NCBI RefSeq assembly: GCF_026571515.1 | Contig: NW_026856059.1 | Location: 62,001 to 126,000 of the forward strand | DNA from: Ruditapes philippinarum | Lineage: Eukaryota | Direction of reading: 5' to 3' | Length of the DNA stretch: 64,000 bases | Shown here: piece by piece, positions 1,073 to 45,246 of the stretch | Position numbering within the stretch: the first letter of the stretch is position 1 | How the letters are laid out: each line of letters opens with the position of its first letter | The notes under the pieces: model-generated | Told to the model about the DNA's origin: nothing | Seen by the model: only the letters and a program-made list of their open reading frames with translations | The model's database searches: none | Program-made: the position numbers and the translations under genes

Positions 1073-2668
1073 CTATTTAGAGCAGACGACGCATGTTAGT
1101 TCACGTCCATGTACATATGGTGGACATCGCAAGGATCCACAACGTGCTTCTACGAAGTAAAAAAGCTTTCCATTTACATCGGCATGTCCACCGTCAATTA
1201 TCTCTGGTTTGGCATCAAGACACACAAATTCAGATGGATGGTGACTGTCATGTCCGCTCGATAGATACCCTTCATATTCTAATGTCCATCCATCATAGCA
1301 TTTGTTACGGCCAGGTATAAACAAAACACTTGCTCGCTTTGTCCGGCATACACAGCACGGTACATCTTGTTGGTGCAATGTTACCTCAAAGAAATTGTTC
1401 ATATTTCTACCATACAATTCATATTCTGCTCCCCAGACAGTGCCGGAAACCTGCTCTCCATCTTCATAAGCATTCCACAATGGTTCTTCTGGTAAACATA
1501 AAAAGTTAGCTGTTGCTCCTATATTATGTTGTGAACCACCAGCGTACCCTTTGTAAACCAGCTCTGTTCCATTTTGTGGGCATTGTGTTCGTCCCCAACG
1601 AATGTATGTATTTCCAGTTCCAGAAAGTGAATGAACTTTTCCTATCTTAATAACGTTCTCTTCAATCGTTTCCAATTTTGGTCTGACTTGATTGCTTTCT
1701 TCTGTAAAATATTCAGTTATCTATTATATTTTAGTGTTTATATGCGAGAAGCAAGCATTATTTTGCTGTAGGAAAAATGTTCATATCTGGAATTTTAACA
1801 CAACAGCGACATATTTATAAGCGGAATTCGTGGATATAATATAAATGAGCCGCGTCACGACAAAACCAACATAGTGCGTTTGCGACCAGCATGGATCCAG
1901 ACCAGCCTGCGCATCCGCGCAGTCTGACTAGGATCCATGCTGGTCGCTTACCAACCCTATTGCAAGTAGAGAAGCTGATAGCGAACAGCATGGATCCTGA
2001 TCAGACTGCGCGGATGCGCAGGCTGGTGTGGATCCAGCTGGTCGCAAACGCACTATGTTGGTTTTGTCATGACGCGGTTCAAATGTTGAATTGACTTATG
2101 TCCTTACAAATATACTATGTGTAACGGAAAAAACGCTCAACATTTTGTTTTTGCATTTTACATTTACATTTTATTTTACACTATAACACTAGTAAAAGCT
2201 GTTTTTAAAGACGAACGTCTGTGCTTGCAGTGTATTTTTGAATTATTGCATACCACAAACTATAATGCCACTATTTGTATGCTTTAAACATGTTAGACTT
2301 ATTTGGAAAAAAAACATATGTAAAAAGCTAAAATAATTAATTTCAAAACCCGAAAATTTGAGAATAAAGTACGTGTATACGATGAGACGCTTAATGCACT
2401 TGTATGAACATTTTTGATTGCATAGATCATTTAATTACATACCTTTTAGTTTTGCAATCACTGTTTTCATATCCTCCATAATGATTTTAGCATTTTTCTG
2501 TTCAATTTCCAACATAATCATTTTCTGTAACATTTTATGGTCATAATCAAATCTTGAAGTACAAACTGGTTCTTCCTGGCTTGCCAAAATGATTCTCAAA
2601 AACAACGTAAGTCCAAATGCCACACATACCACGATTTGTGCTCTTGTCATATGTTTAGCCCCTGACAT
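1073..2668 (-). CDS. Secreted short-chain-collagen-C4/spongin-like domain protein, copy 1 (exons 2668-2443, 1701-1073; 284 aa)
   Basis: Exon 1 encodes a hydrophobic signal peptide plus EEPVCTSRFDYDHKMLQKM and ends AAAG|GTATGT. Acceptor TTTTACAG| at 1702 joins in phase 1 and in frame. Exon 2 has YIRWGRTQCP..LVYKGYAGG..LCLP..GAEYE..VPCCVC..IPGRNKCYDGWTLEYEGYL..FVCLD..LFYFVEARCGSLRCPPY..ELTCVVCSK, which I recognise as the spongin/short-chain collagen C-terminal domain pattern. Confidence 0.9.
1843..2084. mobile_element. Palindromic MITE (~240 bp) in the intron of copy 1
   Basis: Arms of ~100 bp are inverted copies (atgagccgcgtcacgacaaaaccaacatagtgcgtttgcgaccagc... / ...gctggtcgcaaacgcactatgttggttttgtcatgacgcggttca). 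It is GC-rich against an AT-rich intron. Confidence 0.85.
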
Positions 2669-5099
2669 TGTTAGTCCAACAACAGCAAAGGAAAATATAT
2701 CCTCTTTTTCCTTCTTCTTCTCTCATACGTAAATGAATCTGTTGCTTTGCGGCGTCTGTTTGTCTCTATGATAAGCACTAAGCAAAATGAATAGCAAAAT
2801 AATGAGCTAATGATTGTTGTTCAAATGTCGTAACAGATTGTTGGAAGGGAGGATAGGATACATATATCAAAACCAACACAACAGATTGTTATAATTCTGG
2901 GACAGTGTTTCGGTTTAAAGGTAAACAAGCAGTGATCAGGATTATCAAAATCTTCAAAGCATTACATAAAAGTTATGCTAATTATTAAGTAGGATATTAA
3001 TTATTTACAATTATTATGTCCAAAAACGAAAAGATGAATAAAGCAATCGACAGCTCAAAGTGTATACATGCGTTACGGTAGATGTGTTTCCAAACGGTTT
3101 TTAGAAAATTAACTCATTCATCTCAAGTATGTCAAGTTTTTTTCTGTTCTGACTCTAGCAAATACCAGAAATTGTGGATTCTTTTCAGTACATTAAATAA
3201 TGACATATTCAATATAAAAATTATTCGTAATTTAAACTAATGTTCCTATTCTGTTTTTATTTTTCAGAGGAGTCATATTCACTGGTTTCATATACACAAT
3301 ATGCATTTATTACGCATAAGGCATGCTTACGAGAAAACTAATTCCTTTTGTTTTCTTTTCATATTTTCTTTTCATATAATATTTATAAATATAAAAGGAA
3401 AATATTAATATACACATAGGAATAAAACAAACTTAATGCAATCAGCAAGAGAACTGCTAAGCAATGAGAATCTCAGTCTGATGTAATGTTTTATTATATG
3501 CAATTCAATTGTATTTCTGTATCAAAATGTGTTCTGTAAAGGCTCATTTACACAGTTCAACATTCCCATATGAACGTATTCGAAATAGAGGCAGATAAAC
3601 AAGACTGCGATTACATGTATTTATCCATTGTATTTTCATACCTGTAGAAAGATGCTTGTTTTTATTTTTCAAAAATTGACTTGCCGCTTACTTTTTCATT
3701 AAAATTACAATTAATAAGAAAAGCATAGAAAAAGCTTTGAGGAACATACAGTAAAAAGTCTTATGATTTTCTGGTAACATCCAGATAAACAATCATCTTT
3801 GAAAAGGTAAACAAATAAAATAAGATGGTGTTGAGAGTAACTTTACAGATGTTCACTTGATACGGCTTTGGCTATCAGTTAAAATGTTTTCAAACAATAT
3901 TCACTTGCAGACTTTTATTTCCATCTTAGGTTTACATCAAGTAAACAACATAAGCATCTTTTTTTAATAATAACAGTGAATAATGGCGGCATATTACGAT
4001 ATCAAGTGCTAGGTAAATAGAAAAAGACGAACATATCCAAATAAAACATGTAAAATCACAAATAAATATGTATAGCAAATAAACATTTTACAAGTAAACA
4101 AGCAATCAGTGTTACATGTTTTAGATACAATTTCGATAAAGAAACTCAGTGTAGTCAGTAAAATTTTATTTTCACTGATTAACAATTTATTAAATTTGAA
4201 AAAGAAAATGGAATTAACACCGTCTTAAATACTTTTTTCTTTCACCAGAAAACTTTTTACATGTGAATAAATGATGAAATATATTTGTCACCTATTTCAT
4301 CATTTTCTTAAACGTGTCTTGACCTGTTAGTGTTTTCAGCCAGAAAAATTGTGTACATAATTACCATTTAAATTGGATGATCCGGACAAGAACAAACAAT
4401 TATTTATAAAAATGTCCGTCATTAACATTATTAATCATGCGGAAAGTATTGTCATAGTTTGAAACCATCTATACCTTCTTAAATTACCTTCATATTATGC
4501 CCAAGGAAATTTAACCTACTCTTCCTTGGATAAACCAATTGAAAGAAGTCGCACAGAAACAATGACGTTGGAGTACGTTAGAGATCTGACTGATGTAGAT
4601 ACTTACTACATGTATGTCTTTTATAAAGAAAGAAGGAGGCCAACAAATGATCAAAGTGCTGAAAGCACTGCAAGCGACGACATATCTAGCGGTTACATGC
4701 TATATGCACACTAACAAAATTTTGTAATGGTGCCATAGAAATGCCGCAAGAAAGTATTTCAGAATTTTATTGCAATTATACTTTTATATCAATCATTTGC
4801 TAATTTATCATACACCCAGGGTAAAAAGAAATATCACTAGGGTTTTCAAAAAACAAGGTCAATGCAGCTGGACCGTGTAAGATTTATTCATTTTCAACAT
4901 TCGTAAATAGGGTAGGGTTAACTACTCAATTGTCATTGCATATGCGTGAACGACATTTTAACAGACTTGAAATATAATTATAAGTATAATAAATATCAAA
5001 TAGAGAAGAATAGAATCACTAAGGACCGTGAAAAAACGGCAAAATTGACAATTTTGCAAGCTCGATTTGATATGGCTACAAACACAACACTGATAATAG

Positions 5100-6360
5100 A
5101 CCAGTCTGCCGTTTTATCTTAGACGCCTTAAACTGCCTTTGGGCTAACATTTAGACATACGAATGCAGAAGCACGGTGTGTATTTTGTCCGTCCGATAGG
5201 TACCTTTCATATTCCAATATCCATCCATCATGGCATTTGTTTCGATCAGACATTAATAGAACGCTTGCTTGCTTGATCCGGTGTACACAGCAGTAGACTT
5301 CATATTCCATTTTTTTTAAAACAGTATCCACATTTCTATCATACAATTTAAGTTCGGCTTCTTAGACGGTGCTTAATGCATTCTCAGCGTCTGTTTATAT
5401 ATTCGACGGGTGTTCTGTTAGTAAAATTAGCGGGATCAGCGAATTCTTTATAATCTAATTATATTCCATTATCTGGATAATATGTCCCAACGCACATACG
5501 TATATCCCGTCACAGCAAGTAAATTGTTCTTTCAATTTTCTTATCATTTCTTCAATGACTATCTGTCTTGGTCGCTTTTGTCTGAAAAACTATTATTATC
5601 CTAATTCTAGAATACTATAAATCTAGCTCCCATACTGCTTTGTAGTATTGCTAAATTTATGTATTAAATGTGTAATGAAGGTATGCATTTTATAAAAAAA
5701 TGAAAATTGCTAATTGTCTTAATTATCAACTTATACAATACTTTGTCCGATGAAAGACAAAAGACCCAGAAATATGATATTCGAAGAAGTAGAAAAAAAG
5801 AGAATAAAATTACTTTTTAAGTAACCAATCCATTATATAATTAATAGATCCCTGCTTTGACCTTTTATTTAAATAACAATAGATTTAACCACAAACATTG
5901 ACTTGTGCTCGTTTGGAAATAAATATGTTGTGGTGAAATTCTTATTGCATCAACTAATCTGATACTTAGAATTAGACAGGTCAGGGATCTATGCAGTATA
6001 AGAAATATGATCCCTCATAATTCTGTTATTTTGTAATGATTTAAAATATACTCGTTCACTATCAACCAAAATCTAGAGAGATTTAATGTATATGCATCAT
6101 CAAATGATGTCATAATTCAAATTAAAAAAATCATTACACATTATAAACTACATGTATATTGATTATGCATGAACATTACCTTTCTAATAAGAAGGTACCG
6201 CTTTCGTTTCCTCCAACACGGCTTTTTAGTTTTTCTCTGTTCAATTTCTAACATAGTTGTTTTCTGTTACATTTTCAAGTCATAGTAAACTCTGGAAGTA
6301 CAGTCGGACTATTTTTGGGTTGCCACTTGCAAAGCTCCAAAACAACGAAAGTCCAATAAA
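5100..6360 (-). pseudogene. Degraded paralogue (copy 2) of the C4-like gene family
   Basis: The exon 1 remnant (~6180-6360) reads CTSRVYYDLKM*QKTTMLEIEQRKT with stops and a frameshift, and keeps the AAAG|GTAATG donor. The exon 2 remnant (~5100-5581) keeps a TTTTTCAG acceptor and the fragments TYVRW, YCCVHR, DRNKCHDGWILEYERYLS and FVCLN, with deletions. Confidence 0.85.
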
Positions 6361-7069
6361 TGAATAAAAAATTTCCCAAAATTTCATAGGGGCAATAAAA
6401 GAAAGGGCCTTTTAAAAAATTTTTAAAAATTACTTTTTTTGGGCAAAAATACGGAAATTAAATTTTAAGGGGGATTCAAAAATTTGGGTATATATTTCAT
6501 TTTATCAAAAATGTTTAGTTTACTGCAATATCTCTTAACTCAAACCGACTTTTATTTGAATTTTTAATTACCTTTTCTTCATTTTGTTGTTGTTGGTTTG
6601 AATGGACAGGCTACTGTAAATGGACGACAAGGGTTGCTTATCCCCCGAGTATGAGCTATGCCGTAACAATTGGCTTAGTGACGTAAAACCAAATGTCATA
6701 AGCCTTGGATTAAATATATCAACGATAACGCCGCCGAAGGCATGCGATTTAAAAAGTAATGGCATCTACTCAGAGAAATGTTCCAATGAATTCCAAACTG
6801 ATTCAAAATTAAGAATTTGTGGACTATTTAAATCAAGCAATGTATAATAAAACCACATAAATCTGAGAGCGAATATATTTTGGAACATACTTCTCCCACA
6901 CGACTTTATCAAGACGATTACAAATTAAAACATTTCATATATAAATTTCCTAGAAAATGTGCAAACACTTGTTGTAAGTGCTTATCTCCACATACTTCCT
7001 GTCATAAATATCAGAATACGTAAATTTCTACTGAAATAATGCACTCCCTTTTAATTTAAATCGTGAAGA

Positions 7070-7190
7070 TGAAATCGTGATTTCCGGAAGTTGAAATCGT
7101 GAATTCCGTATATTGAAAACTTGAAATCAAGAAGTTAAAATTGTGATTCACAAACTTCAAGATGAAATTGGGAATTTATGAAGTTGAAAT
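7070..7190. repeat. Degenerate ~21-bp tandem repeat (gttgaaatcgtgaattcc-like); duplicated at ~19105-19240
   Basis: gaaatcgtga/gaaattgtga/gttgaaa motifs recur at about 20-bp spacing. Confidence 0.55.
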
Positions 7191-8042
7191 GTTCATAGCA
7201 GTCTATCGTGAAAGTGGCATGCCAGTACCATGCCCGTCATTTACTGGTCCAAATAAAAAAAGGATTGTAAATGGATATTTTATGTGATAAAAGCTGGTTT
7301 CAGGGTTACAGTCTCAAACATGTGTGGGTAGAATTTTAGTTTTTCTATTATGTTTTTAAAGAAAACAGCCATATCGCATTATAACTGCAATAACAAAAAA
7401 AATCTTTTAATGTAACTAAAAACATTACGGTGGACAGGGCTTCTATATGTATGGTCGGTATGTCCAAACCACAGGATATTTCAGGCCCTAAAGATTAATA
7501 TAATTAAGTTGTGTTCATAATTATTAAAAGTCTTACTAATTTTAATCGAGGAATGAGAAGTTATCTTTTGTTAACCACAAATGCCGATGGTCATATTTTT
7601 AAATGGCGTATCTGAAAATTATAGACAAAGAAGTTTGTATTTTTACATAACGTCATTGAAGCCTCTACTAACGAGGGGTCGTTTAAGGCAGGTTAAAGTG
7701 ACATAATGCTCATATTTTCATGGTCAATTTGAGCTGAATTGACTTTATGTTTGAAAAGAATGACTGTCAAAATGGTGTTTGACCAACAGTTGATATTGGA
7801 AAATGTTTAGGATAAAATTATAAATCTGTCTAAAATTTAAACAGACTGCCCAACTCTTTTTATAAACTATTCGTTTTAGGTAGATCCTAAAGGATAACTA
7901 CAGAAATTTCGTTTGGATCTGTGAGTTATTTATTGTTTATGCGAATTTAATTATTTAATTAAAAGGAATTATGGCAAAATGAAACTTATTTTGACTTTCA
8001 CCCGTTCAATCACTATATACCCTTGGATGGGCATAATGTCAA

Positions 8043-8061
8043 ATTATTATTATTATTATTA

Positions 8062-8113
<52 letters not shown>
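8043..8113. repeat. (TAT)n microsatellite
   Basis: Seen directly; a shorter copy is at 20468-20529 in unit B. Confidence 0.95.
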
Positions 8114-8114
<1 letters not shown>

Positions 8115-9872
8115 TCTACAAGCATTGCATACATTTGTTTCAGTACCGTATAGTCATGGACTATTTATTTCAATACTTATTCCTTCTAGTTATTAAAAAT
8201 AATTATATATAACTTTTTTACTATCACCACATTTCATTAATTACATAAGAAATTTATGTGGAAAAAAACAACAACAACAAAAAAAACATCATCAACAAAA
8301 GAAAAACACCTTGAATTGAACTGATACAGTACTGCGTTTAAAGAGCATACCGAAAACTAATTTTGTTTCTTTTAAAGGGCGACAACTGATGTATTCTTTG
8401 TTGTAATTGTATAGGCAGATTTGCTGTTCTTTTTATTCAACTTGGTTCACACAAAAAAATTTCAATTTACATTGTTACTTTTGTTACACGCAGATATCGT
8501 TCACATTTGATTTTGTTCGGGGAAATGTAGAAAATATTCAACAAAATCGATGTTTAAGTATATAAGTAAATTTTGCTACCCATATGTATCTTTTTACTTC
8601 GCTATTTGATGTCATAATTGTACATAAATACCAACTTCGAGATAGTTTTCTTGCAATAATGAATACTTTATTGATAGTATGTTTGTTGTAAAACGTGGTA
8701 TTGCTTTCCATATTGCATGATGATGATGATTAAAATGATGATTATGATGATGATTTTATTTATAAAGAAACATATCCAATTAAGGCATTCACAGAAAATC
8801 ATGAGTCGCGGGCATCATCAACAGAGTGAAGATTACAAATAATGGGGCATAAAAAATCAGTGACTTTGTACTTGCAGACATTTTCATGATATGATTTATT
8901 TTTCTCTATAGCTATTTATATTTGTATACAATTTATAGTAGCATAATAAACATATCTTATTTGACATAAAGGTGTCACTAAAAGTTTAAACGCAATATGC
9001 TATGATTTGATAAATGTTTATTTTGCAATAGAATTGTTTATAGTCAAACACAGTCAGCAGTCAAGCTGAAAATGTTCAAGATTAGATATGAAAAGTCAAA
9101 TTTGCTAAAACACGACCTATTTCTAATATAAACTGAGATTATACTAACGTATATTTTGCCGAACGAAGGAAAAGATTGGTTTGATTGGCTCCTTGTATTA
9201 CATTGACGCACAATTAGCCAAAGGTCAAGCAGTATGTAACAGTATAAGTTCTCACATATATGTTATATGATTCTGTAAGTTTTATAAGTCTTGAGATTGA
9301 GACTGACGGCGGACATTAACTTGAAAATATAATCATATAATAAACCAATTTATATTTTGTAATTCATTGAATGTATATTAAGTTTCTATGGCAACGCGTT
9401 TGAATACATTGATAATATGTCAGGATCATTAAAAGTTAAGCATCTTCAACCATGTACTATTTTCTTAGAAGTATTACAAATAAAGTAATTTAAACTGTTC
9501 TTATTCACCTTTATGAAATAAAAATATCGCATAATGCAAATTATGTGTGTAACTTTATCAAAAATGTCAAGCATATGAGCAAGCCATTTGATGTTTTGCC
9601 GTTACTCCAGATTGTAACATGTAATGAGTGTTCTATTGCGGTTTGCAGTATACAACAACTCAATTGTTAAAATGCGCAATTATATAAAAAAAAACTTGAC
9701 AATGGGCTCTTTTCTAAAAGGCAGTAAATGAGGACACCGTACCTTTTTCTTAAAAGCATGTTCTTGTTTGAATTTTAAAAAGAACGATTAGATTTTCAGA
9801 ACCGGTAAGTGATAAGTTTTCTCTAAATAAAACATGCATCTACCTATTAAATGATTGCTACGTTATTATATT

Positions 9873-11365
9873 TTATTTAGAGCAGACAGCACATGTCAGC
9901 TCACGTCCATTAACATATGGTGGACATCGTAATGATCCACAACGTGCTTCAGCAAAATAGAACAGTTTTCCATTTTTATCCGCGTGTCCGCCTTCCACTA
10001 CCTCCGGTTCCGTGTCAAGACAAACGAATTCAGCAGCATGATGTGTATCATGTCCGCCCGACAGGTAGCCTTCATATTCCAATGTCCATCCATCATAGCA
10101 TTTATTCCGGCCTGGAATCATTAGAATGCTTGCCCTGTTCGTGCGACATACACAACACGGAACGTCATGTTCTGCCACTCCTTTTTCAAAGAAATTATTC
10201 ATATTTCTACCATACAATTCATATTCTGCTCCCCAGACAGTGCCTCCAGTCTGCTCAGCGTCTTCATATACATTCCACAACGGTTCTTCCGGTAGACATA
10301 AATAGTTGGCGGAAGCTCCTTTATTACTATAGTGGGAACCACCAGCGTAACCTTTGTAAACCAACTCTGTTCCATTTTCTGGGCACTGTGTTCTTCCCCA
10401 TCTCACATACGCATTTCCCGTTCCAGCTAGTGAATTCATACTTTCAATTGTTCTAACTTTTTCCTCAATTGTTTTCAACATGGACTTGTCCTGATTGCTC
10501 TCGTCTGTAATATAGTATGCAGTTCTTAATTTAGTGTTCTATAATAATGCTTTAAATATGTGGTTCTGGAGATTGTTAAGAAAGGATACACTGAATCTGT
10601 AATGAATGCTAGCCGTTTAAAAAGAGAAAAAGGATGACTTATTCCCATAATTATACTAATACACAATCTTATGAAAGAAAGCATTGCACTAGTTATATGA
10701 TGATTTAGGAAATAAGGATAAATGATTTATAACTAGTCCATTTTGTTTAGACAATAAATATCAAATAAGAATAGTAAAAGTGATGTAAATGTTCTTTAAG
10801 CTTAAGCGTGTGTGCTGGAAAACAAAACCCGCCAGCGTAAATTGCTCAGGAGTAATGAAAACATAACCTAATGACTCAGTGTGATTCAGTATGCGCTTTA
10901 AAAATGACGTAAAATACATGTTCGATATCATCGACTTTAGCGGAATCCTCAATCTTTAAAATATTACATTCAATGATCCCAAAAGATTTTAAAGATATAA
11001 AAATACAATGTCATAACACTGCTCACAAAATATAATTTGTAAACAAAGTAGATAAAAAATTAGAGTCAAAATAATTCAATAACAATAAGAGTAAATATCA
11101 AATGTCAGTTTATGTCAGATCATATATACCTATCTTATATAATTGTTAACACATTACCTTTCTGTTTAGAAAGCGCCGCTTTAATTTCCTCCAACATGGT
11201 TTTAGTATTTCTTTGTTCAATTTCTAACATTATCATTTTCTGTAACATTTTGTGGTCATAGTCAAATCGTGAAGTACATACTGGTTCTTCTTGGTTTGCA
11301 AAAATTATTCCCACAAACAACACAAGAATAAATACAATACGTAAAAACAAATTTACAAAAATCAT
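9873..11365 (-). CDS. Secreted C4/spongin-like domain protein, copy 3 (exons 11365-11158, 10504-9873; 279 aa)
   Basis: ATG at 11365 gives signal peptide MIFVNLFLRIVFILVLFVGIIFA. Donor AAAG|GTAATG and acceptor TTACAG| give an in-frame phase-1 join, and the Cys-rich domain is intact to ...ELTCAVCSK*. Confidence 0.92.
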
Positions 11366-11654
11366 TTTGCATGTAATTTTGCTTCCAGTTTCCAACGTTT
11401 ACTCTCTACACGTAAAAGAAAAAAGGACCACTGGAACAGATTTACTGTAAAAGTAAACTCCTTGATATTTGCGAATCCATTTTTTCATTTCATGCGTCAC
11501 ATTAATTAGATGCATATGCTTCAATGTGATGAATCTTTTACTTTGTACTTTCTTGTACTTTGTTAAAAAGCACTTATATTATTGATGTCCATACACGTTC
11601 GATTTACGTTGGCACCAATGCCTACACTCAATGAGAAATATTTGACATTGAATA

Positions 11655-13109
11655 GCATTGTCGGACCAAAATTGTCACGGAACGTATGTGTCACACGTGT
11701 GACATATTCGGTCGAATATAATAAGCGTTTTACGAAATCTCGTATTTCATTAATGCAATTTATAAGAAGGGAGACAACCCTGGTATGTCATTAAGTTTTC
11801 ATATTTTATACTATTCATCTCCCTTTACAAGTCAGGTGTCTTCTATAAAATTTTGCTTTGTGTTCATTTCCGTTTAAAAAAAATGAATGCATGTTTTACA
11901 TTGTTTGTGAATATCTTATTTATGTTCACGTCATACTGAAAGTTTTGTAATGCTTATATTTAAGCAGTTATTTGTGAATTTCTCTTCCGCCATCCGATGC
12001 ACATGGTTTTCTAGGAACTAAATGGCTGCAATATTGCAATATTCTGACGATATAGTTATACAATTTTCTTTTGTTTCGAATGACTTATTTTGTATGTATA
12101 ATTGCTTCTTCATCAAATCAATCTAAAGGTATAGTTACTCTAAATGTAAACAATATCATAATTTAACAGCTGCCTGCATTAACAGTCATGTTACAGTCAT
12201 GTGACCAAAATGTCATAGGCGATCTTACCTCAAGTACTGTTTTGGCTACATGCGACACAAGTATAAATTGCAAATTTGTTTTAAGTGAAGGACACTAACT
12301 CTGGCATTGCTGCGGGAATCAACAGGTGAACAACTCGCACGGACAAGTAAGAAGGTTTAAATTCCCTCTCCCTATCAGAGTTTGGGGCATAAAAATTGGA
12401 TATTTTATCTTCGAGTCAATAAATATTTAATTGTCCAAATTAAATTTAACTAAGCTAATCACTGTGTATCGACACAGTGTCATCTTACTCGGAAAGGGCT
12501 TAATCTAATATTGTTAAGAACTTGTTGCCCAACCTATTTTGCATTTTTGATATATATACTCATTATTTGTAAATAATTGTTTGTTAACATGAGTATTTAA
12601 TGCAACAACATATGTTTAATAAATTAAAAAAAAAATCTTACTGGTAAAATGAATAAGCAGGGCGGCGTCGAACAAATTTATAAAAAATATATTGCTGTTT
12701 TGGCGATGNNNNNNNNNNNNNNNNNNNNNNNNNNNNNNNNNNNNNNNNNNNNNNNNNNNNNNNNNNNNNNNNNNNNNNNNNNNNNNNNNNNNNNNNNNNN
12801 NNNNNNNNNNNNNNNNNNNNNNNNNNNNNNNNNNNNNNNNNNNNNNNNNNNNNNNNNNNNNNNNNNNNNNNNNNNNNNNNNNNNNNNNNNNNNNNNNNNN
12901 NNNNNNNNNNNNNNNNNNNNNNNTGTAGGCAGGTTAAAACGACGATAATAATATTAGTTTACTGTGTAAAATGTGTGACATATACGGACAGGCATTTACT
13001 TCCAAATTGCAGAAACGTGTATGGCTTATATAGATAGCTGTGATTAATTCGGCCGAATATGTCCCACAAGTGTGATATACGCTCCGTGACATATACGGTC
13101 CGACATAGC
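11655..13109. mobile_element. Non-autonomous TIR element (~1.45 kb) upstream of copy 3, spanning the N gap
   Basis: The left end gcattgtcggaccaaaattgtcacggaacgtatgtgtcacacgtgtgacatattcggtcgaat matches the reverse complement of the right end attcggccgaatatgtcccacaagtgtgatatacgctccgtgacatatacggtccgacatagc (~60-bp imperfect TIR). Confidence 0.65.
12709..12923. other. N gap (215 nt); equivalent gaps at 25110-25304 and 31825-31970
   Basis: The N runs lie at the homologous position in all three units, next to (GAT)n/(GTT)n simple repeats. Confidence 0.95.
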
Positions 13110-14980
13110 ATCCTTATCAATCTGCCAGTTGTTTAATTAGTAATTGCCCTTTGATTAAGAAATTCCGCACGGAATCACATCTTGTACATGTTTGTTTATT
13201 ATGCAAATTGTATAAATTTAATGTATACCTCAAAAGTTAAAGTAATGTGAAAGGCTTTCTCAAAATATTCAAAGTTTATATTCTTTGAATACAATATACG
13301 CGACGCGCCATTGCCATTATACAATGGACATCGTGCGAGGTATATATATCCATTTTTCCATACTTTTTCTGTTATTTTCCTTTTGTATTCAAGCCTATAA
13401 ATTATCATACTCACATACTTTTATGAGTATACAGTAATAATAAATCCAGGGTGATATAAAGTTCATAAACATTGAAATGGTTCAAGACAAACATATCGTG
13501 AGAAACGATTTATGTTAAAGGCACAGAAGGGCCTAGAATTGCATAGATATTTCCTTATTTTGAAACGGCCAACATTAATGATATAACGTTGGATACTAAT
13601 TTCTGAGGCATTCTTTGACCATTATTAAGTAATTAAGTAATTGCTTAAAGGCACAGTATATGTCGCAAAATTTCGTGTATATTTATAATTCGTTATAAGT
13701 GGCAAACAAGTGTTTAATAAAGTTTCGACAATGAATTTAGAACATGTTACGTGTTTAACAGGCGAAGAAAGTAGCGATTAAATTGAGTTATGTGCCGTGC
13801 TAACTGTACACATAGTTTTATTTTAACTTCCATACAAAATAATAATTCACTTTATTTAAAGCAATTGCCAACAAAGCTAAAGAACCAAATTTAGTAATAA
13901 GATAACAAAATGTTTTTGAGAAATGCAAATCATAGCATTTCTGAGGCACAATGAGGCATAATGGACCTTTAAGATTGTGTACAGGCTTATTATATATGAT
14001 GAAAGTAATGCTGCATGTGGAGTTTGAATTTGCCATGAAAGTAGCATATGTAAACAATGTAGTATTCTGACTCAAAAAATGAATCACTGTAACTATGCAA
14101 ATTGCCGTTAGGCAACATAAGTAAAATATAATTCAGGTAATTGGTCAAAAAGTAACATTCTAGAAACTATAACAGGACGAAATAACGATTCTCAGAAATA
14201 AGAATAACAGCATTTCTTGTATAAAGGGCCTTTAATAACTAATGTGTAATTTAATATCATGTTCCTGAGATTCAACGCTCTCAACAGGCATCTGGCAGCA
14301 ACTAGATATTGTTGTGAAAACAACATACATGTTAAGTTTTCTACTCATATCTACTGCGTAAAGATATGTTTCAGTATAGAGTATGCAAGATACCGGATTC
14401 TTTCTATGAGGGCATCAAAATATCTAAGATCAAATAAGACAAATCAATGCATTACGGACCGGCTGTAATTTGAAAAAGAGGAAGGTTATAGTCAATACTG
14501 AGTCCATTTATCAAAAGTCACGTGAATAATGATAGAAATTCGTTACACAAATTTATTTACTTTATTATAACACTACAGGAGAGGAACTGTCACACGGGGG
14601 ATTAACTTGTCTGAAGTTATTCTGATAACTGTCATGGAGTTCCTGGAAAACGTTACGGGTTTCGTCGGGAAACTTCTGTTTATACCGAAGAAGTATTTGT
14701 AAAAAAACGGTAATTTTCGAGTTTGACGTGCTAAATTACAAAAACCTAGCTTATGGTAACTGTGAACGGCCGCGACCATCCTCTGCATGAGGTATACTTT
14801 TTTTTTGCTTGACGTTTTCTTTCCTTGCACTGGTGAAAATGTAGAGTAAAAACATCTGTCTGATATGCATGAATTGTTTCTTCTTTGTTATGTTTAATGT
14901 TAGATCTACTTAAATTATTTAACCTGAAATATGTTAACATCCACAATTAATTCAAATGAAGACGTAAAGAATATACATAA

Positions 14981-16178
14981 TGTTACCGTTGTCACTGTTG
15001 AAATGATTTTGTCAGGATCACTTTTAAGGCTACTGAAGTTAAATGGTACGGTAATTTACCATAAAACTTAATCAATGAAAAAGAATATAAACACTTGAAA
15101 ATACCAAAACGCTCAAGTACAGTTAATCTTATTTATTAAGATCTTCTGTTAAATAAATGCATAAAACAGGATAATTAAATACTGTAAAAACATGTAAATT
15201 ATTGCCCTTGGTATAGTTATTGTAGATCTAATGAGTTCGTCAATGTAAAGTTGTAAAAGAAGGGGTTATATGAACGTATTTCGCGTAAATTACAGTTAAA
15301 GTCTTCTAGCGGAATATTTATTTAGCGGAATGTTCAAGTTTTGACGGATTTCCGTTGTTTGGCGGATTTTTAGTTAGGGTTGAGCTACTGTTCAAATAAT
15401 AACCTTGTTAGTCCGTGTTTCACGGTTGGAAAGCTGCTCAACTGAATTGAGCGTCTGTATTTATAGACTTTGGCGTGTTAATTCCGAAATGAAATTGCCC
15501 GCCGCTAAAACATTCAAAAGTACTCTTATCCAATAAGATTCGACAACGGAATTAGTTAACCAATCACAGCGTTCCGCTAAACATAGCACAGTCATGGCTC
15601 ATACGCCGTCAGACAAAAATAGATCCGTCAAGGATCCGCTAAAATGTTATTATTCTTTTATAGAATAATAAAGACATAAAATATCGGCAGATTTTTATAT
15701 AATAGTCACTCTTTTTCCAAAATATGATTATGGTAGTTTCGTTGCATTACAGTACTTTCTCGGAATTTGGCCGGATATGGAACTTATTTCCGCTGAATCC
15801 GTCAGCTAGAAAATGTAAATAATACACACCTTTGTGTTCTAGTGACACTTCTAGTGTACACTTTCTGCATCTATTGTAATGGAATAATAGTTCAGGTATA
15901 TTTCTACATATCTGATCGTTATTATTGTTATTCTTTGGTCAGTTGAGTATCTACGCTCAATTGTCAGGTTATTTCGCGACCCGGATCATGTTCACAAAGT
16001 TCTGAACGATATTTCAATGTTTCTTTAACTCGAATCATTGAATACTTATACTGTTTACTGTTAGATATATAGTTGATAAACAACCACACAAATCACGGAA
16101 ATGACAGAGCAGAATTCAAGTAAAGGAAAGGTAAAATCTCGTCACACTGTCAAATTGTTTACATGTCTATCCATAACA
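14981..16178 (-). repeat. 3' LTR (~1.2 kb) of the Gypsy element
   Basis: TG...CA termini with a 5-bp inverted repeat TGTTA/TAACA, adjacent PPT, and an empty site acataa|tgtatac in unit B (~27336). Confidence 0.75.
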
Positions 16179-18441: not shown

Positions 18442-19620
18442 ACATATTGCCTGTCAAATCTTATAATGCGCTGCCCTTCATAAAAACCTAAAAAAACAGG
18501 CACTCTTTAAAATAAAAATAAAAACAATCGTTCGGAGTTTAACTTTGATATTTTCAAATTAATGAAAATATGAAACCGTATAGTATTTATTTAGTTATTT
18601 TTCTCTTATTCATCTTCATATTTGCGTATCTATTTACCTTTTCTTTATTTTTTGTTTTTTTTTAAATTGGATTTGGTACTTTTAAATGGATACAAGGGGG
18701 TTTTTACCCCAAAGTATGGCTTTTTCCGTAAAAATTGGGTCTAGGGGAGAAAAACCAAAAATTTCAAAAAGCCTTGGTTTAAAAATTAAAATCAACAAAA
18801 ACCCGCCCCGAAGGTAGGTTTTAAAAAAATTTACGGGCATCTACCCCAGAGAGATGTTCCCCAATGAATAAAAACTTTTAAAAACAAGCAAGTATAAAAA
18901 AACCCCCTTTAAACTGAGAGCGAATTTTTTGGGAAAACTTTCCCACAAGACTTTATCAAGACGATTACAAATTAAAACATTTCATATATAAATTTCCTAG
19001 TAAATGTGCAAACACTTGTTGTAAGTGCTTATCTCCACATACTTCCTGTCATAAATATCAGAAAACGTAAATTTCTACTGAAATAATGCACTCCCTTTTA
19101 ATTTAAATCGTGAAGATGAAATCGTGATTTCCGGAAGTTGAAATCGTGAATTCCGTATATTGAAAACTTGAAATCAAGAAGTTAAAATTGTGATTCACAA
19201 ACTTCAAGATGAAATTGGGAATTTATGAAGTTGAAATGTTCATAGCGGTCTATCGTGAAAGTGGCATGCCAGTACCATGCCCGTCATTTACTAGTCCAAA
19301 TAAAAAAGGATTGTAAATGGATATTTTAGGGACTGATAAAAGCTGGTTTCAGGGTTACAGTCTCAAACATGTGTGGGTAGAATTTTAATTTTTCTATTAT
19401 GTTTTTAAAGAAAACAGCCATATCGCATTATAACTGCAATAACAAAGAAATTTTTTTAATGTAACTAAAAACATTACGGTGGACAGGGCTTCTATATGTA
19501 TGGTCGGTATGTCCAAACCACAGGATATTTCAGGCCCTAAAGATTAATATAATTAAGTTGTGTTCATAATTATTAAAAGTCTTACTAATTTTAATCGAGG
19601 AATGAGAAGTTATCTTTTGT

Positions 19621-20486: not shown

Positions 20487-20530
<44 letters not shown>

Positions 20531-29025: not shown

Positions 29026-30484
29026 TTATTTAGAGCAGACAGCACATGTCAGCTCACGTCCATTAACATATGGTGGGCATCGTAATGATCCACAACGTGC
29101 TTCAGCAAAATAGAACAGTTTTCCATCTTTACTCGCGTGTCCGCCTTCCACTACCTCCGGTTCCGCATCAAGACAAACGAATTCAGCAGCATGATGTGTA
29201 TCATGTCCGCCCGACAGGTAGCCTTCATATTCCAATGTCCATCCATCATAGCATTTATTCCTGCCTGGGATCAATAGAATGCTTGCCCTGTTCGTACGAC
29301 ATACACAACACGGAACGTCATGATTTACCAGTTCTTTTCCAAAGAAATTATTCATATTTCTACCATACAATTCATATTCTGCTCCCCAGACTGTGCCTGC
29401 GTCCTGCTCAGCGTCTTCGTATACATTCCACAACGGTTCTTCCGGTAGACATAAATAGTTGGCGGAAGCTCCTTTATTACTATAATGGGAACCACCAGCG
29501 TAACCTTTGTAAACCAACTCTGTTCCATTTTCTGGACATTGTGTTCTTCCCCATCGCACATACGTATTTCCCGTTCCAGCTAGTGAATTCAAACTTTCAA
29601 TTGTTCTCACTTTTTCCTCAATGGTTTTCAACATGGACTTGTCCTGATTGCTCTCATCTGTAATATAGTATGCAGTTCTTAATTTAGTGTTCTATAAATT
29701 ACACTCCCAATAATGCATTAAATATGTGGTTCCGGAGATTGTTAAGAAAAGATACCCTTAATCTGTAATGAATGCTAGCCGTTTAAATAGTGATAAAGAA
29801 TGATGACTTATTCCCATAATTATGCTAATACACAATCTTATGAAAGAAAGCATTGCACTAGTTATATGATGATTTAGGAAATAAGAGTAAATGATTTATA
29901 ACTAGTCCTTTTTGTTTAGACAATAAATATCAAAGAAGAATAGTAAAAATGCTGTAAATGTTCTTTAAGCTTAGGCGTGTGTGCTAAAAAAAAACGCCAA
30001 CGTAAATTGCTCAGTGTGATTCAGTATGCGCTTTAAAAATGACGAAAAATACATGTTCGATATCATCGACTTTAGCGGAATCCTCAATCTTAAAAATATT
30101 AGATTTAATGATCCCAAAGATATAAAATACAATGTCATAACACTGTTCACAAAATATAATTTGGAAAAAAAGTAGATTAAAAAATCATAGTCAAAATAAT
30201 TCAATAAGAATATATATCAAATGCCAGTTTATGTCAGATCATATATACCTATCTTATTTAATTGTAAACACATTACCTTTCTGTTTAGAAAGCACCGCTT
30301 TAATTTCCTCCAACATGGTTTTAGTATTTCTTTGTTCAATTTCTAACATTATCATTTTCTGTAACATTTTGTGGTCATAGTCAAATCGTGAAGTACATAC
30401 TGGTTCTTCTTGGTCTGCAAAAATTATTCCCACAAACAACACAAGAATAAATACAATACGTAAATACAAATTTACACAATTCAT
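29026..30484 (-). CDS. Secreted C4/spongin-like domain protein, copy 5 (exons 30484-30277, 29657-29026; 279 aa)
   Basis: Same exon structure, canonical splice sites, intact ORF. Confidence 0.92.
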
Positions 30485-30754
30485 TTTGCATGTAATTTTG
30501 CTTCCAGTTTGTAAGTTTACTCTTTACAAGTAAAAGAAAAAAGGCCACAGGAACAGATTTACTGTAAATGTAAACTCCTTGATATTTGTGAATCTTTTTT
30601 TTCATTTCATGCGTCACATTAATTAGATGCATATGCTTCAATGTGATGAATTCTTTACTTTGTTAAAAAGCACTTAATATATAATTGATGTCCATACAAA
30701 GTTCGATTTACGTTGGCCTCAATGCACTCATTGAGAAATATTTGACATTGAATA

Positions 30755-32228
30755 GCATTGTCGTACCAAAAATGTCACGGAACGTATGTGTCACACGTGT
30801 GACATATTCGGTCAAATATTAAAAGCCTTTTACGAAATCTCGTATTTCATTAATGCAATTTATTAGAAGGGAGACAACCCTGGTATGTCATTAAGTTTTC
30901 ATATTTTATACTATTCATCTCCCTTTACAAGTCAGGTGTCTTCTTTAAAATTTTGCTTTGAGTTTATTTCCATCACAAAGTTTAGTTTAAAAACTTATAA
31001 ACTATGAATGCATGTTTTACATTGTTTGTGAATATCTTGTTTATGTTTACGTCATATTGAAAGTTTTGTAATGCTTATATTATAACAGTTGTTTGTGAAT
31101 TTCTCTTCCTCCATCCGAAGCACATGGTTTTCTAGGAACAAAATGGCTGCCATATTGCAATATTCTGACGATATAGTTATTCAATTTTCTTTTGTTTCGA
31201 ATGACTTATTTTGTATGTATAGTTGCTACTTCATCAAATCAATCAAAATGTATAGTAACTCTAAATGTAAACAATATCATAAACAGCTGCCTGCATTAAC
31301 AGTCTTGTTACAGTCATGTGACCAAAATGTCATAGGCGACCTTAGCTCAAGTACTGTTTTGGCTACATGCGACACAAGTATAAATTGCAAATTTGTTCTA
31401 AGTGAAGGACACTAACTCTAGCATTGCTGCGGGAAGCAACAGGTGAACAACTCGCACGGATAAGTAAGAAGTTTAAATTCTCTCTCCCCCTCAGAGTTGG
31501 GGGCAAAAAAATTGGATATTTTATCTTCGAGTCAATAAATATTTATGTCCAAAAATATTTAACTAAGCCAATCACTGTGTATCGACACAGTGTCATCTTA
31601 CTGGGAAGGACTTAATCTTATATTGTAAGAACTTGTTGCCCAACCCATTTGCATTTTGATATATACTCATTATTTGTATAATATGTTTGTAAACATGTAT
31701 TTAATGCAATCACAGATGTTTAAATGAATAAAAAAATCTTACTGGTAAAATGATAAGCAGGGCGGCGTCGACAAATTTATAAAAAATATATTGCTGATTT
31801 ACGATGACGATGATGATGTATCATNNNNNNNNNNNNNNNNNNNNNNNNNNNNNNNNNNNNNNNNNNNNNNNNNNNNNNNNNNNNNNNNNNNNNNNNNNNN
31901 NNNNNNNNNNNNNNNNNNNNNNNNNNNNNNNNNNNNNNNNNNNNNNNNNNNNNNNNNNNNNNNNNNNNNNTATTGATGATGATGTTGTTGTTGTTGTTGT
32001 TGTCGTTTTGTTGTTGTTATTGTTGTTGTTGTTGTTGTTGATGATGATGAAGATGATGATGATGATGTTAGTTTACTGTGTAAAATGTTTGACATATACA
32101 ACCAGGCATTTACTTCCAAATTGTAGAAACGTATCGTATATGGCACATATAGATAGCTGTGATTAATTTGGCCGAATATGTCCCACACGTGTGATATACG
32201 CTCCGTGACATATACGGTCCGGCTTAGC
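30755..32228. mobile_element. TIR element, unit C copy, containing a (GAT)/(GTT) microsatellite and a gap
   Basis: Same terminal inverted repeats; simple repeats are visible at 31971-32068. Confidence 0.6.
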
Positions 32229-33591
32229 ATCCTTATCAATCTGCCAGTTGTTTAATTAGTAATTGCCCTTTAATTAAGAAATTCCGCACGGACTCTCATC
32301 TTGTACATGTTTGTTTATTATGCAAATTGTATAAATTCAATGTATACCTCAAAAGTTAAAGTAATGTGAAAGGCTTCCTCAAAATATTTCAAAGTTTATA
32401 TTCTTTGAATACACTATACGCCACGCGCAATTGCCATTATAAAATGGACATCGTGCAAGGTATATATCCAATTTTCCATATTTTTTCTGTTATTTTCATT
32501 TTGTATTTCAAGCCTTTAAATTATCATATTCACATACTTTTATGAGTATACAGTAATAATAAATCCAGGGTGATATAAAGTTCATAAACATTGAAAACAT
32601 ATTATCGTGAGAAAGGTTTATGTTAAAGGCACAGAAGGGCCCAGAATTGCATAGATATTTCCTTCTTTTGAAAACGGCCAACATTAATGATATAACGTTG
32701 GATATAAATTTCTAAGGCATAAGGTGCTTCTTTGACCATTATTAAGTAATTGCTTAAAAGCACAGTATGTCGCAAAATTCTGTGTATATTTATAATTCGT
32801 TATAAATGGCAAACAAGTGTTTAATAAAGTTTCAACAATGAATTTAGAAAATTTAACAGGCGAAGAGAGTAGCACTGAAATTGAGTTATGTGTCGTGATA
32901 TAGTTACACAAAGTTTTTATTTTAACTTCCGTACAAAATAATAATTCACTTTATTTAAAGCAATTGCCAACAAAGCTAAAGATCCAAATTTAATAATAAG
33001 ATAACAAAATATTTCTTTTTTAGAAATACAAATGATAGCATTTCTGGGGCATAATGAGGCATAATTGATCTTTAAGATTTTGTAAAGGCTTATTATATGA
33101 GGAAAGTAATGCGGAGTTTGAATTTTCCTTGAAAGTAGCACATGTAAACAAAAGTAGTATTCTGACTCAAATACTGATACACTGTAACTGTTCAAATTGC
33201 CATTACGCAACATAAGTAAAAGATTATTCAGGTAATTGGTCAAAAAGTTCTCAGAAATAAGAATAACAGCATTTCTGGTATAAAGGGCCTTTAATAAGTA
33301 ATGTGTAATTTAATATCATGTTCCTGAGATTCAACGCTCTCAATCGTTATAGGCATCTGGCAGAAACTAGATATTGTTGTGAAAACAACATACATGTTTT
33401 CCACTCATATCTACTGCGTGAAGATATGTTTCAGTATAGAGTATGCAAGATACCGGGTTCTTTCTATGAGGGCATCAAAATATCTAAGATCAAATAAGAC
33501 AAGTCAATGCATTACGGACCGGCTGTAATTAGGAAAAGAGAAAGGTTATATTAATTACGTATTGAGTCCATTATTCAAAATGTCAGGTGAA

Positions 33592-34297
33592 TTATTCCCT
33601 GCGGTCTGGAGACCGCAGGGTATTGGTACGCGTTTAACTTTTGAGGCATGGAGGAGCACGTGACCTGTTTTCGGTACATGGAGGAGCATGTGATCTGTAA
33701 ACCGTACATGATTGGTTAATTGACCTTTTCGAAAACCTGGCTAAATACCGTTTGCCGGTACGTTACGGATTTACCTCTAGGGAATTAGTCAGAATTACAC
33801 CTAATTAAGAACAAAAAACTATTACGTGATATTCCTAATTTTTTGTAATTATTTTACCGTTTAAGGTGGAAAAACTTTAATGATGTGTTTGAAAATTATC
33901 AATGTTTCTTTAATATCTCAAATTTTACAAACAATAGATTGTTTATACTGAAAATCTACAAAATTACAATATTCGTAGTGGCATCTGCCATAATAAATAG
34001 AGATATTTTCTGCGTAAACTTGTGTGTTTACTTTATTTTATTTTTTTGCTAGGAATTATTCATAAAATGGTAGGCCTATTTAATCATTTTCTTAAAAAGA
34101 AATAATTGATTTATGTTCGACCTTCTCCGGTCATCAACGGTCACCAGTTTCCAAAGATCTTCTTCTATATTGATCGATTATTGTCAACTATATTCCTGAT
34201 ACAAACGTTTATTTATCCCCCCACAATGTTGAAAATAGTTAAATAAAATATCTTTATATCATTAAAAATGTTCCCCGCAGGAAACCAGTTTACTTGT
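33592..34297 (-). mobile_element. Helentron-associated (HINE/DINE-1-like) non-autonomous element specific to unit C
   Basis: Absent from units A and B. On the minus strand it starts ACAAGTAAACTGGTTTCCTGCGGGGAA and ends with the stem-loop CCCTGCGGTCTCCAGACCGCAGGG plus AATAA. It has an internal direct repeat (catggaggagca.gtga.ctgt x2) and no TSD. Confidence 0.7.
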
Positions 34298-35190
34298 ACA
34301 CAAATTTATTGATTTTATTATAACACTACAGGAGAGTCGGACGTTATTCTGATAACTGTTATGGAGTTCATGGAAAACTTTACGGATTTCGTCTGGAAAC
34401 TTTTGTTTATACCGAAGAAACATTCGTAAAAACTTTAAAAAAAGTTTGATGTGCTAAATTAAACTTAGATAACCGAAAACCTAGCTGATGGAAACTGTGA
34501 ACGGCCGCATAGGGTATAACACTTTCCCAGCACTGGTGAAAACATCTGTCTGATATGCATGAATTGTTTCTTCTTTATTATGTTTAATGTTAGATCTTCT
34601 TAAATAGTTTAACCTGAAATATGTTAACAACTTAACATGCTCAATTAATTCAAATGAAGACGTAAAGAAGATACATTATGTATACGGCTTACACTGAGCC
34701 GTAACGTAGTTACATGGTTAATCGAAGATTAATGTCCTTACTCTCAATAAATCATGTACTTGAGCATTGCCATTATTTTATATAGAGAATAGTCCACATT
34801 ACCGACAACTTATTAACTATTTTGTTTTTCGAAGTACAACCTCTTTGTGCTGGGGCTCGTTCTGTGAGTATTGTTTATATTTGTTCTCATATAAAGTAAA
34901 GACATGTTTTTGGTTACATTTTATCAGTTTATCTGTTTCTTGAAACTTGCCATTCTTTGTCGTTTGCATATTTTATGTATTATAAGAATCACTAAACAAG
35001 AAACACCATCGTCATATAGTCATCATCTCTTCATTATATATTGTTTTTTTTATATATTAAATACAAATTTAAATATTTATGTAGACTAAGTCATATATTA
35101 TGCTAGCAGCATAATGCACACGTTTCTATAGACATAGTTTACAATATTGTACAAGATTAAAAATGTTTATTACCGCTAGGGTTTCCTTAA

Positions 35191-43346: not shown

Positions 43347-43621
43347 ATGATTTTATGTTTTGTGTTTGGACTTGTATTGTTTGGAAGGACACTTTTGGCA
43401 AGCCAGGAAGAGCCGGTTTGTACTTCAAGATTTGACTATGATCATAAAATGTTACAGAAAATGGTCATGTTGGAAATAGAACAGAGAAATACTAAGATTG
43501 CTTTAGAGGAGATAAAGACAACGTTATCAAAACAAACAGGTAAGAAACCGGCATATATATCACTCATAATAAGTTTGTTATTTTTAATTATAATTTCTAG
43601 ATTGGATATCCTTGTTATTAT

Positions 43622-43657
<36 letters not shown>

Positions 43658-45246
43658 ACTTTTGATTTACCTACTTAAACTCGTGCGCAAAAACGTTGTT
43701 GCGTTTTGTTCCTCCTTATGGCATTTTGCTCTATTAAAATATCATAACAGAACTAAAAAAAATTTAATTAATTACTTTCAAGTCCGCAACCAGTATTGGC
43801 GTGACCAACTTGACTTTACTTTACTTCCCATGCATAGTTTATTCATCATTTTATTATATGGAGACATATTCAGAAAGAATTTCATACATTTCAATAAAGT
43901 TCCGTGAATAAATTTTAATCAATGATGAGCATGGTAAATCTTTCAATAAAACTATTTTTGTCAATTGTCACGTAGTGTTTTCGAAATGTTGAGTATCATA
44001 ACTGTGGTACTTTTGGCATTCAAAAGATTGTCCTAGTGTGTGTATAATATGAATATATAAACGTACATGATTTATCATTTTGTGTTTAATCTACATGTAT
44101 TATGACTGTACCTATGACTTTTACTACTAAACTGCATCTGAATGATATAGTCTCACAAAATTCAAGAATAACTTTTAAATGTCAAACACACGATTAACAA
44201 AAATAATTCCTTAAAAACTTAAAGATATACTATGCTCATCTTTGTGTAAAATATTTTTATCTTAGAAATGTATTGAAATCAATGAAATTCTTACTGAATA
44301 TGTTAAATTTGAATTAAATAATGAAGAAACTATGTATGGGAAGCAGCATTCCTTATTACGGGTCAATTAAAGTTGGTATTTTCTTTAAAGAAAACTGCCA
44401 GTTTTTTTTAATGACACTATATATTCATATTGTGACCACCTGTAGTGTGTAGAGTTCAAAACATAACATATCTACTTTAAATTAAGCCGAAACCTGTTTA
44501 TTTTATACATACAAAGAGACTTTGTAGCAATTATCAATATCTTTAAAAATCAAATTTGAGCATAGTATATCTTTAAAAGAAAACAAAAATTAAAATATTA
44601 AATGTTTCCAGACGGAAGCAGGCAGGAGAAGTTATTGCTGGCAAACATTGAGGAAAAGATAAAAGAAGTTGAAACAGCTACTTCAGTTCTTCGATCGGGA
44701 AATACGTACGTGCGTTGGGGAAGAACACAATGTCCAGAAAATGGAACAGAGTTGGTTTACAAAGGTTACGCTGGTGGTTCCCACTTTAATAATAAAGGAG
44801 CTTCCGCCAACTATTTATGTCTACCGGAACAACCGTTGTGGAATGTATACGAAGACGCTGAGCAGACTGCAAGCACTGTCTATGGAGCAGAATATGAATT
44901 GTATGGTAGAAATATGAATAATTTCTTCGGAAAAGGAGTGGCAGATCATAACGTTCCATGTTGTGTATGTCGTACGAACAGGGCAAGCATTCTAATGATC
45001 CCAGGCCGGAATAAATGCTATGATGGATGGACATTGGAATATGAAGGTTACCTATCGAGTGGTCATTACAGTCACGAAGCATCATCTGAATTTGTTTGTC
45101 TTGACGCAAAACCAGAGATCATAAATGGTGGTAGTGCTGATGAAAATGGAAAACTATTTTATTTTGTTGAAGCGCGCTGTGGATCGTTACGATGTCCACC
45201 ATATGTGAACGGACGCGAACTTACATGTGTCGTCTGCTCTAAATAA
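43347..45246 (+). CDS. Secreted C4/spongin-like domain protein, copy 6, inverted (exons 43347-43539, 44612-45246; 275 aa)
   Basis: ATG at 43347 gives MILCFVFGLVLFGRTLLASQEEPVCTSRFDY. Donor ACAG|GTAAG and acceptor TTTCCAG| give an in-frame phase-1 join; the domain is intact. Confidence 0.92.

Follow-up and report, generated by a model that had tools for sequence, protein, structure and literature searches.

What is made by bivalve genes whose products carry the C-terminal head of a short-chain collagen and hold no collagen helix? This question was raised by a 64,000-nt stretch of Ruditapes philippinarum DNA (contig NW_026856059.1, positions 62,001 to 126,000; hereafter the window), in which five intact genes (g1 to g5) and one pseudogene form a cluster. 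The encoded architecture is very probably a secreted coiled-coil trimer with a head like the NC1 domain of collagen IV. The proteins belong to the spongin short-chain collagen-related family as a collagen-less variant, and their build resembles that of the type II C1q-domain-containing (C1qDC) proteins of bivalves. As for function, our analysis gives about even chances that they act as secreted, disulfide-multimerised trimers binding a conserved surface ligand in body fluids and gill secretions.

Structure of the gene cluster

The original prediction described five intact genes and one pseudogene with a shared layout. This was confirmed, with every motif it had named found in its place, and a safe count is four to five intact loci. 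Each intact gene is split into two coding exons by a phase-1 GT-AG intron of 615–1072 nt, and the products are 275–284 amino acids (aa) long. The signal peptides of g1 to g5 were called from hydrophobic N-termini alone and are described here as signal-like. The genes are located in the window as follows.

2443..2650, minus strand: g1 exon 1, with signal peptide, Cys leader module and first half of the stalk (alternative ATG at 2668)
1073..1701, minus strand: g1 exon 2, with the remaining stalk and the NC1-like head, stop included
6173..6382, minus strand: pseudogene exon 1 remnant, with a stop and frameshifting indels
5095..5596, minus strand: pseudogene exon 2 remnant, with stops and many deletions, the 3' end of the head missing
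11158..11365, minus strand: g2 exon 1 (RefSeq LOC132745279, XP_060590137.1)
9873..10504, minus strand: g2 exon 2; head at residues ~97–279, with two NC1-like half-repeats and the 10 family cysteines plus Cys187
23567..23774, minus strand: g3 exon 1 (LOC132745280, XP_060590138.1)
22317..22951, minus strand: g3 exon 2
30277..30484, minus strand: g4 exon 1 (LOC132745281, XP_060590139.1), possibly an alternative haplotype of g3
29026..29657, minus strand: g4 exon 2
43347..43539, plus strand: g5 exon 1, in an inverted copy
44612..45246, plus strand: g5 exon 2, codons ~100–212 apparently converted with the g2–g4 lineage

The products of g2, g3 and g4 are letter-identical to the three listed R. philippinarum RefSeq proteins, each of which is named "uncharacterized protein"; these three genes are therefore already annotated, with identical exon structure. 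No further copy in the window was detected by tblastn beyond the five genes and the pseudogene. Gly-X-Y runs of at least four triplets were absent from all six frames of the window, the introns reaching a maximum of three, so the claim that the cluster lacks a Gly-X-Y repeat stands. Hidden collagen exons were found in neither the introns nor the window, and the RefSeq models are likewise two-exon.

Sequence and predicted fold of the head

The head was 52% identical over 187 aa (pairwise E 3e-63) to that of a collagen-bearing amphioxus protein, Branchiostoma belcheri XP_019647873.1, named "short-chain collagen C4-like". The UniRef names of close matches also agree with the spongin short-chain collagen-related family. 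Ten head cysteines were conserved at 99% or more across 145 aligned sequences, and no HSQ motif was present. Spongins have been defined by ten cysteines, of which seven are shared with collagen IV and three are spongin-specific, and by the lack of an HSQ motif (PMC5395295). The clam heads agree with this description in the total of ten and in the missing HSQ. An eleventh head cysteine, Cys187 in g2 numbering, occurs in all five genes, where VPCCVC replaces the VPCAVC of the family; it varies among relatives and is probably unpaired. The head is bipartite, and its two halves are homologous (HHalign probability 97.6, E 3e-12), as expected of the internally duplicated Cys-rich domain proposed for it.

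A Pfam scan of the g5 and g4 heads returned no family at E ≤ 5, including no C4, C1q or ApeC, and none was returned for the relative P0002. Sequence searches of the PDB with a single head or with a 145-sequence profile gave nothing significant. AlphaFold2 models were confident, with a predicted local distance difference test (pLDDT) score of 94.2 for the full length and of 95.8 for the head alone (predicted template-modelling score 0.90). Compared with 48,161 chains, the head model had only two matches at Z ≥ 2, and both were collagen IV NC1 (best Z 7.4, root-mean-square deviation 4.2, 147 residues aligned); over all fold comparisons made, the NC1 matches had Z 7.4–7.6 and deviations of 4.2–4.4 across 145–147 residues. 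The best Foldseek matches were also all NC1 (E 3e-5, 13% identity), and no C-type-lectin-fold chain was among the fold matches. A match below Z 8 is middling alone, but for this model it is unrivalled, spans most of the domain and is concordant with Foldseek. The spongin/NC1-like character that had been proposed for the head is therefore upheld in sequence, by the amphioxus match, and in predicted fold. With collagen IV NC1 the head has in common the fold, the internal duplication and a predicted trimer ring; it differs in being 13–17% identical and about 40 residues shorter, and in lacking a Pfam C4 match, an HSQ motif and a long triple helix.

In the Atlas, a neighbouring cluster carried Pfam C4 on 11% of its members (0.91), and a weak feature-level lead to ApeC was returned (score 0.80). 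Neither Pfam (PF16977) nor the fold lists bore out a relationship with ApeC, although one may exist, and the Atlas score is no more than a lead. In the apextrin layout, ApeC stands behind MACPF. Apextrin/ApeC-domain proteins and the clam heads are both secreted invertebrate Cys-rich modules that are also found behind MACPF, but the clam head has no ApeC match in Pfam or fold.

Leader, stalk and predicted oligomer

In the AlphaFold2 model, stalk residues 33–93 form one helix of about 60 residues. When three copies of residues 24–279 were modelled together, stalk contacts were heptad-spaced over residues 37–93 and the heads formed a ring. The homotrimer scored 0.91, compared with 0.01 for the best of three controls; the runs agreed on at least 92% of contacts, and pLDDT was at least 84. 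The mark applied to the trimer had been passed in calibration by 21 of 30 proteins solved as one-chain pairs and by none of 23 single chains; by subset it was passed by 17 of 29 eukaryotic and 7 of 16 animal proteins, and by only 1 of the 7 eukaryotic ones that had no relative solved earlier. Three-copy models lie outside this calibration, and the pass may reflect memory of, or likeness to, the NC1 trimer.

An NC1-like fold and an oligomer were thus both predicted, and the helical stalk standing where relatives have collagen was borne out in the models. The heptad helix named in the original prediction is seen in the models, in both the helix and its contacts, but not by sequence alone: periodicity was best at 3.44–3.50 and was not significant over the whole stalk (Fourier shuffle p 0.085–0.37), a point against the overall reading.

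The leader (residues 25–52) was the most constrained part of the proteins, with one to two amino-acid changes and a nonsynonymous divergence (dN) of 0.014–0.029 against a synonymous divergence (dS) of 0.6 to saturation. Its single cysteine, Cys30, was invariant in 17 of 17 close relatives.

Family breadth and origin of the collagen-less layout

One search found 754 proteins at E ≤ 1e-10; its 900 candidates covered lengths of 115–368 only. Among the best 120 listed matches, many of them partial, none had a Gly-X-Y run of at least five triplets and 28 had the leader pattern. An unindexed search returned 3,491 clusters (50% identity), and such a run occurred in 17 of the 150 listed. A full head was present in 285 of 311 proteins; after 71 that were too short for their architecture to be read were left out and g1 and g5 were added, 216 entered the tree. 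A clade of 151 heads, which includes the named molluscan proteins, contained no Gly-X-Y run above three (FastTree support 0.953; in a subset of 60 sequences, ultrafast bootstrap (UFBoot) 77). A separate clade held 21 of the 22 heads that bear collagen, and the identified ones among them belong to Nematostella, Branchiostoma, Amphiura and Ptychodera.

Judged from these sequences, molluscan members of the family are usually collagen-less, and the layout is not a local invention. A coiled coil is likely to have replaced the collagen helix, but this direction falls short of proof, given the weak support of the deep nodes and a sample skewed towards relatives of the query. The Ruditapes copies formed a clade (UFBoot 98) whose sister is Mercenaria LOC123532371 (97); a separate Mercenaria expansion lies apart, and Sinanodonta carries another array. 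In the tree, this lineage pattern is one of birth-and-death evolution.

Spongin short-chain collagens share with the clam proteins the C-terminal domain, ten cysteines without HSQ, two half-repeats, secretion and tandem multigene arrays. Unlike short-chain collagens in the strict sense, the clam genes have no Gly-X-Y domain; its place is taken by a conserved Cys leader and a helical stalk predicted to form a coiled coil. An exchange of collagen for a coiled coil has already been described in bivalve sC1q-like type II C1qDC proteins (PMC6835236), which likewise combine a signal peptide, a predicted coiled coil and a trimeric head in two-exon tandem paralogues; the clam head is unrelated to theirs, having the NC1 fold and no C1q (PF00386) match, and the leader module is shared with one C1q protein, P0306.

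The warning that an automatic "collagen" label would mislead is supported, since most close relatives have no collagen. To call the cluster an undescribed system was an overstatement: it belongs to a recognized family, three of its genes are in RefSeq, the closest listed matches also lack collagen and the stalk exchange is established for C1qDC proteins. Our literature search returned no published account of collagen-less or coiled-coil spongin-like mollusc proteins, or of the locus identifiers; Aouacheria et al. 2006, which lay beyond the search, may mention collagen-less members.

Modular context of leader and head

A profile search with the leader gave 51 matches among 7,999 scored candidates, many of them exon-1-only fragments; 15 were read and 13 domain-scanned. 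A single-sequence search gave three matches among six candidates, all three without a Pfam domain, and an Atlas search with the leader gave no usable match. P0306 (an ENA record) consists of a signal peptide, the same leader (profile E 1.3e-8), a coiled coil and a C1q domain (E 2.7e-16). Sinanodonta woodiana ACJMK2_036315 (P0279) carries the leader twice, followed by a different non-Pfam region. These few cases suggest that the leader-stalk exon is shared between head types.

Among 40 scanned proteins, the head was accompanied by collagen, MACPF, F5/8C, TNFR, SH2, Sushi, Ig/EGF or TSP1. Its matches reached beyond animals in transcriptome records, with 98–147 bits per domain and contamination possible: nine heads in the TNFR-bearing Choanoeca perplexa P018407 (EukProt; P0121), three in the TNFR-bearing Bicosta minor P006823 (EukProt; P0146), and three behind MACPF in the Provora predator Ancoracysta twista (P0128/P0132/P0139). 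The Cys258–Cys263 pair of animal heads was missing in all four aligned protist heads. Placement in MACPF and TNFR proteins would be typical of a binding module. Two Logan/JGI records also carry a single head, P0225 with the full animal-type cysteine set and P0257 with 48 Gly-X-Y triplets; we take their N-termini to be bacterial in appearance. Spongins have been called specific to invertebrate animals (PMC5560861). Our literature searches, which covered text accessible in part, found no report of choanoflagellate spongin domains, and no paper containing "MACPF" was found for Provora.

Proposed function and the structural alternative

In the predicted assembly, three chains come together as a parallel coiled coil and their heads make up a closed ring, in which the second half-repeat of each chain packs on the first half-repeat of the next. 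Because a single Cys30 per chain cannot all pair inside a trimer, it would link trimers into larger bouquets. Stalk-and-head plasma proteins provide the model for such cysteine cross-linking. The products would reach the haemolymph, the extrapallial fluid and the secretions of the gill. There, and this is the least certain step, they may act as multivalent surface binders of agglutinin or opsonin-like type; their ligand would be a conserved one and probably a glycan, carried by microbes, particles or matrix. They would be neither fibril-forming collagens nor rapidly diversifying receptors.

Soluble secretion, which had been suggested for the family, is judged likely from proteins of this name in cell-free fluids of Mercenaria. 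Table S1 of PMC8902148, on cell-free haemolymph and extrapallial fluid, contains ten rows annotated "short-chain collagen C4-like". One of them, of 279 aa and 32 kDa, was identified by 9 peptides and 166 peptide-spectrum matches and was about equal in the two fluids (log2 fold change −0.26). LOC123532371 encodes 279 aa (31.97 kDa) and was the only one of 16 Mercenaria relatives compared at that length; by length and mass only, we infer that it corresponds to this row. Eight of the ten rows had been assigned KEGG K03989, "complement component 4", an error that seems to stem from the name. In Mytilus, a "Short-chain collagen C4" transcript ranked among the top transcripts of the gill, as did C1qDC, perlucin, apextrin and fucolectin (PMC4581086). 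A binder is also favoured by the C1q protein P0306, which has the leader of these genes, and by the heads in MACPF and receptor-like proteins of protists. The same name was recorded in octopus ink (PMC10142993) and in Nematostella neuroglandular cells (PMC12549020), and sea anemone homologues by name were upregulated in the adhesive pedal disc (PMC6626399).

Several points weigh against a soluble binder. The only solved relative of the head, collagen IV NC1, serves in matrix assembly. The records from gill and plasma go by an annotation name, may represent other paralogues and, for the gill, come from a collagen-rich tissue; for an oyster gill record under this name, the authors suggested a role in shell formation (PMC12040131). 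Our literature searches yielded no ligand, binding site or infection response for any member. In the accessible portions, neither the supplements of a Manila clam study of pathogen-associated molecular patterns nor the main text of a Dreissena challenge proteome contained a family match. A C1q domain accompanied only one of the 51 leader matches (13 scanned). Positive selection was shown for oyster C1qDC clusters (PMC6835236), whereas none was detected in the clam heads: no site class had omega > 1, and the likelihood-ratio tests M1a/M2a and M7/M8 were 0, with five sequences and low power. The accessible parts of PMC11270918, PMC13093298, PMC8878817 and PMC8533556 added nothing on function.

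A matrix or adhesive protein is a possible though less than probable alternative. The trimer would then build up or cross-link gill support, mucus gel or the shell organic matrix, its head self-associating as in collagen IV and its leader disulfides polymerising. Such a protein would fit NC1 as the sole solved relative, the strong purifying selection seen in both head and leader, the enrichment in gill together with collagens and dermatopontin (PMC4581086), the occurrence in extrapallial fluid (PMC8902148) and the pedal-disc record (PMC6626399). Less easily accommodated are the absence of a collagen helix or low-complexity segment (Gly 8–9%), a head of 183 residues against 224 in NC1, and the lack of the domain-swap region reported for spongins (PMC5395295). 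The near-equal level of the 279-aa row in both fluids is a further point against it, and repeated lineage-specific expansions would be unusual for a purely structural unit.

Duplication units, assembly and mobile elements

The duplication units are listed below without strand.

6553..14983: tandem duplication unit with g2, about 87–91% identical to the following units
18619..27597: tandem duplication unit with g3
27784..35167: tandem duplication unit with g4, 95% identical to the g3 unit across 4 kb

The g2–g4 units lie head to tail and are 87–95% identical. Among themselves g1, g2 and g5 are 72–79% identical, g3 and g4 96.4%, and database copies other than those of the window differ from g1, g2, g4 and g5 by 2–10%. 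g3 and g4 lie on separate contigs (12924–25109 and 25305–31824), both of which start and stop at homologous points flanking N gaps. Given these ends and the 96.4% identity, g3 and g4 may be two haplotypes of one locus, and the minimum safe count would be four intact loci. Each of the three N gaps (12709–12923, 25110–25304 and 31825–31970) coincides with a GAT/TGT microsatellite and occupies the same place in the repeated unit.

A long-terminal-repeat (LTR) retrotransposon integrase fragment (Integrase_H2C2, rve; 17341–18453, minus strand) separates the g2 and g3 units. A long interspersed nuclear element (LINE; 37168–42798, minus strand), with reverse transcriptase, endonuclease, an upstream ORF1-like frame and frame breaks, separates g4 from the inverted g5. 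The g1 intron holds a palindrome resembling a miniature inverted-repeat transposable element (~1846–2081, ~235 bp, 87.5% self-complementary), and the g5 intron also has an inverted pair.

It is possible, though less than probable, that the expansion in the window is partly neutral turnover or an assembly artefact, made of redundant copies beside retroelements with g3 and g4 as haplotypes. The homologous contig ends, the g3–g4 identity, which falls within the range to other database copies, the LTR-type integrase fragment and LINE between copies, and the one dead copy are in keeping with this. However, g1, g2 and g5 are well diverged and all under purifying selection, so at least four loci are real and maintained, and the explanation bears on copy number, not on function. 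The genes look like ordinary paralogues of the molluscan collagen-less branch that have probably undergone tandem duplication with gene loss and conversion.

Elsewhere in the window, an array of 38-bp repeats was found at 16677–17182, and a 57-bp satellite (101.6 copies, 95% matches) at 58205–64000 continues past the window edge. A stop-to-stop frame of 191 aa at 55033–55608 (plus strand), without a Pfam match, may belong to a neighbouring gene as one of its exons.

Selection and probable gene conversion

Pairwise dN/dS of the heads was 0.11–0.41. Codon site models, run in our own implementation on five heads with conversion and hence at low power, gave an M0 omega of 0.15 with ~17% neutral sites, which indicates purifying selection. 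At 32 sites picked as variable from 14 relatives outside the window, dN/dS was 0.35–1.11, compared with 0.07–0.26 elsewhere. On present evidence, the variable loops appear relaxed, not adaptive. Variable sites were not enriched outside the trimer interface (mean entropy 0.76 at 107 interface positions and 0.70 at 74 others). Codons ~100–212 of g5 (roughly 44710–45050) share a conversion-like tract with g2–g4, making g5 a mosaic (permutation p ≤ 4e-4); its dS to g2–g4 was 0.12–0.14 in the first half of the head and 0.64–0.72 in the second.

The "diversifying" role that the original prediction gave to the head was not supported; both its purifying selection and the loop values weigh against it within the power of five sequences. 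A pattern-recognition repertoire whose paralogues differ in ligand specificity through selected head-loop changes is improbable: independent expansions in Ruditapes, Mercenaria and Sinanodonta, variation clustered in loops near 127–131, 167–182, 222–225 and 234–246, the g5 mosaic and the 2–10% difference of other database copies would suit it, but no site class exceeded an omega of 1, at low power and with conversion, and the loop values fit relaxed constraint.

Significance for the family

The cluster itself is an ordinary example, one of many, of a large and mislabelled family. Hundreds of mollusc proteins are read as collagens or, via the letters "C4", as complement component 4. We tentatively suggest that they may form a fourth class of mollusc plasma recognition proteins with stalk and head, overlooked next to C1qDC, FReD and C-type lectins, with a shared Cys-leader/coiled-coil exon and an NC1-like head, filed as "collagen C4" or "complement component 4". 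The head might then be an ancient ligand-binding module older than animals, with collagen IV NC1 co-opted for matrix assembly and not the reverse; the homologous heads of choanoflagellates and Provora are relevant to where that fold came from. If it is true that these proteins bind microbes, they would be an abundant added class in the humoral immunity of bivalves, including farmed clams.

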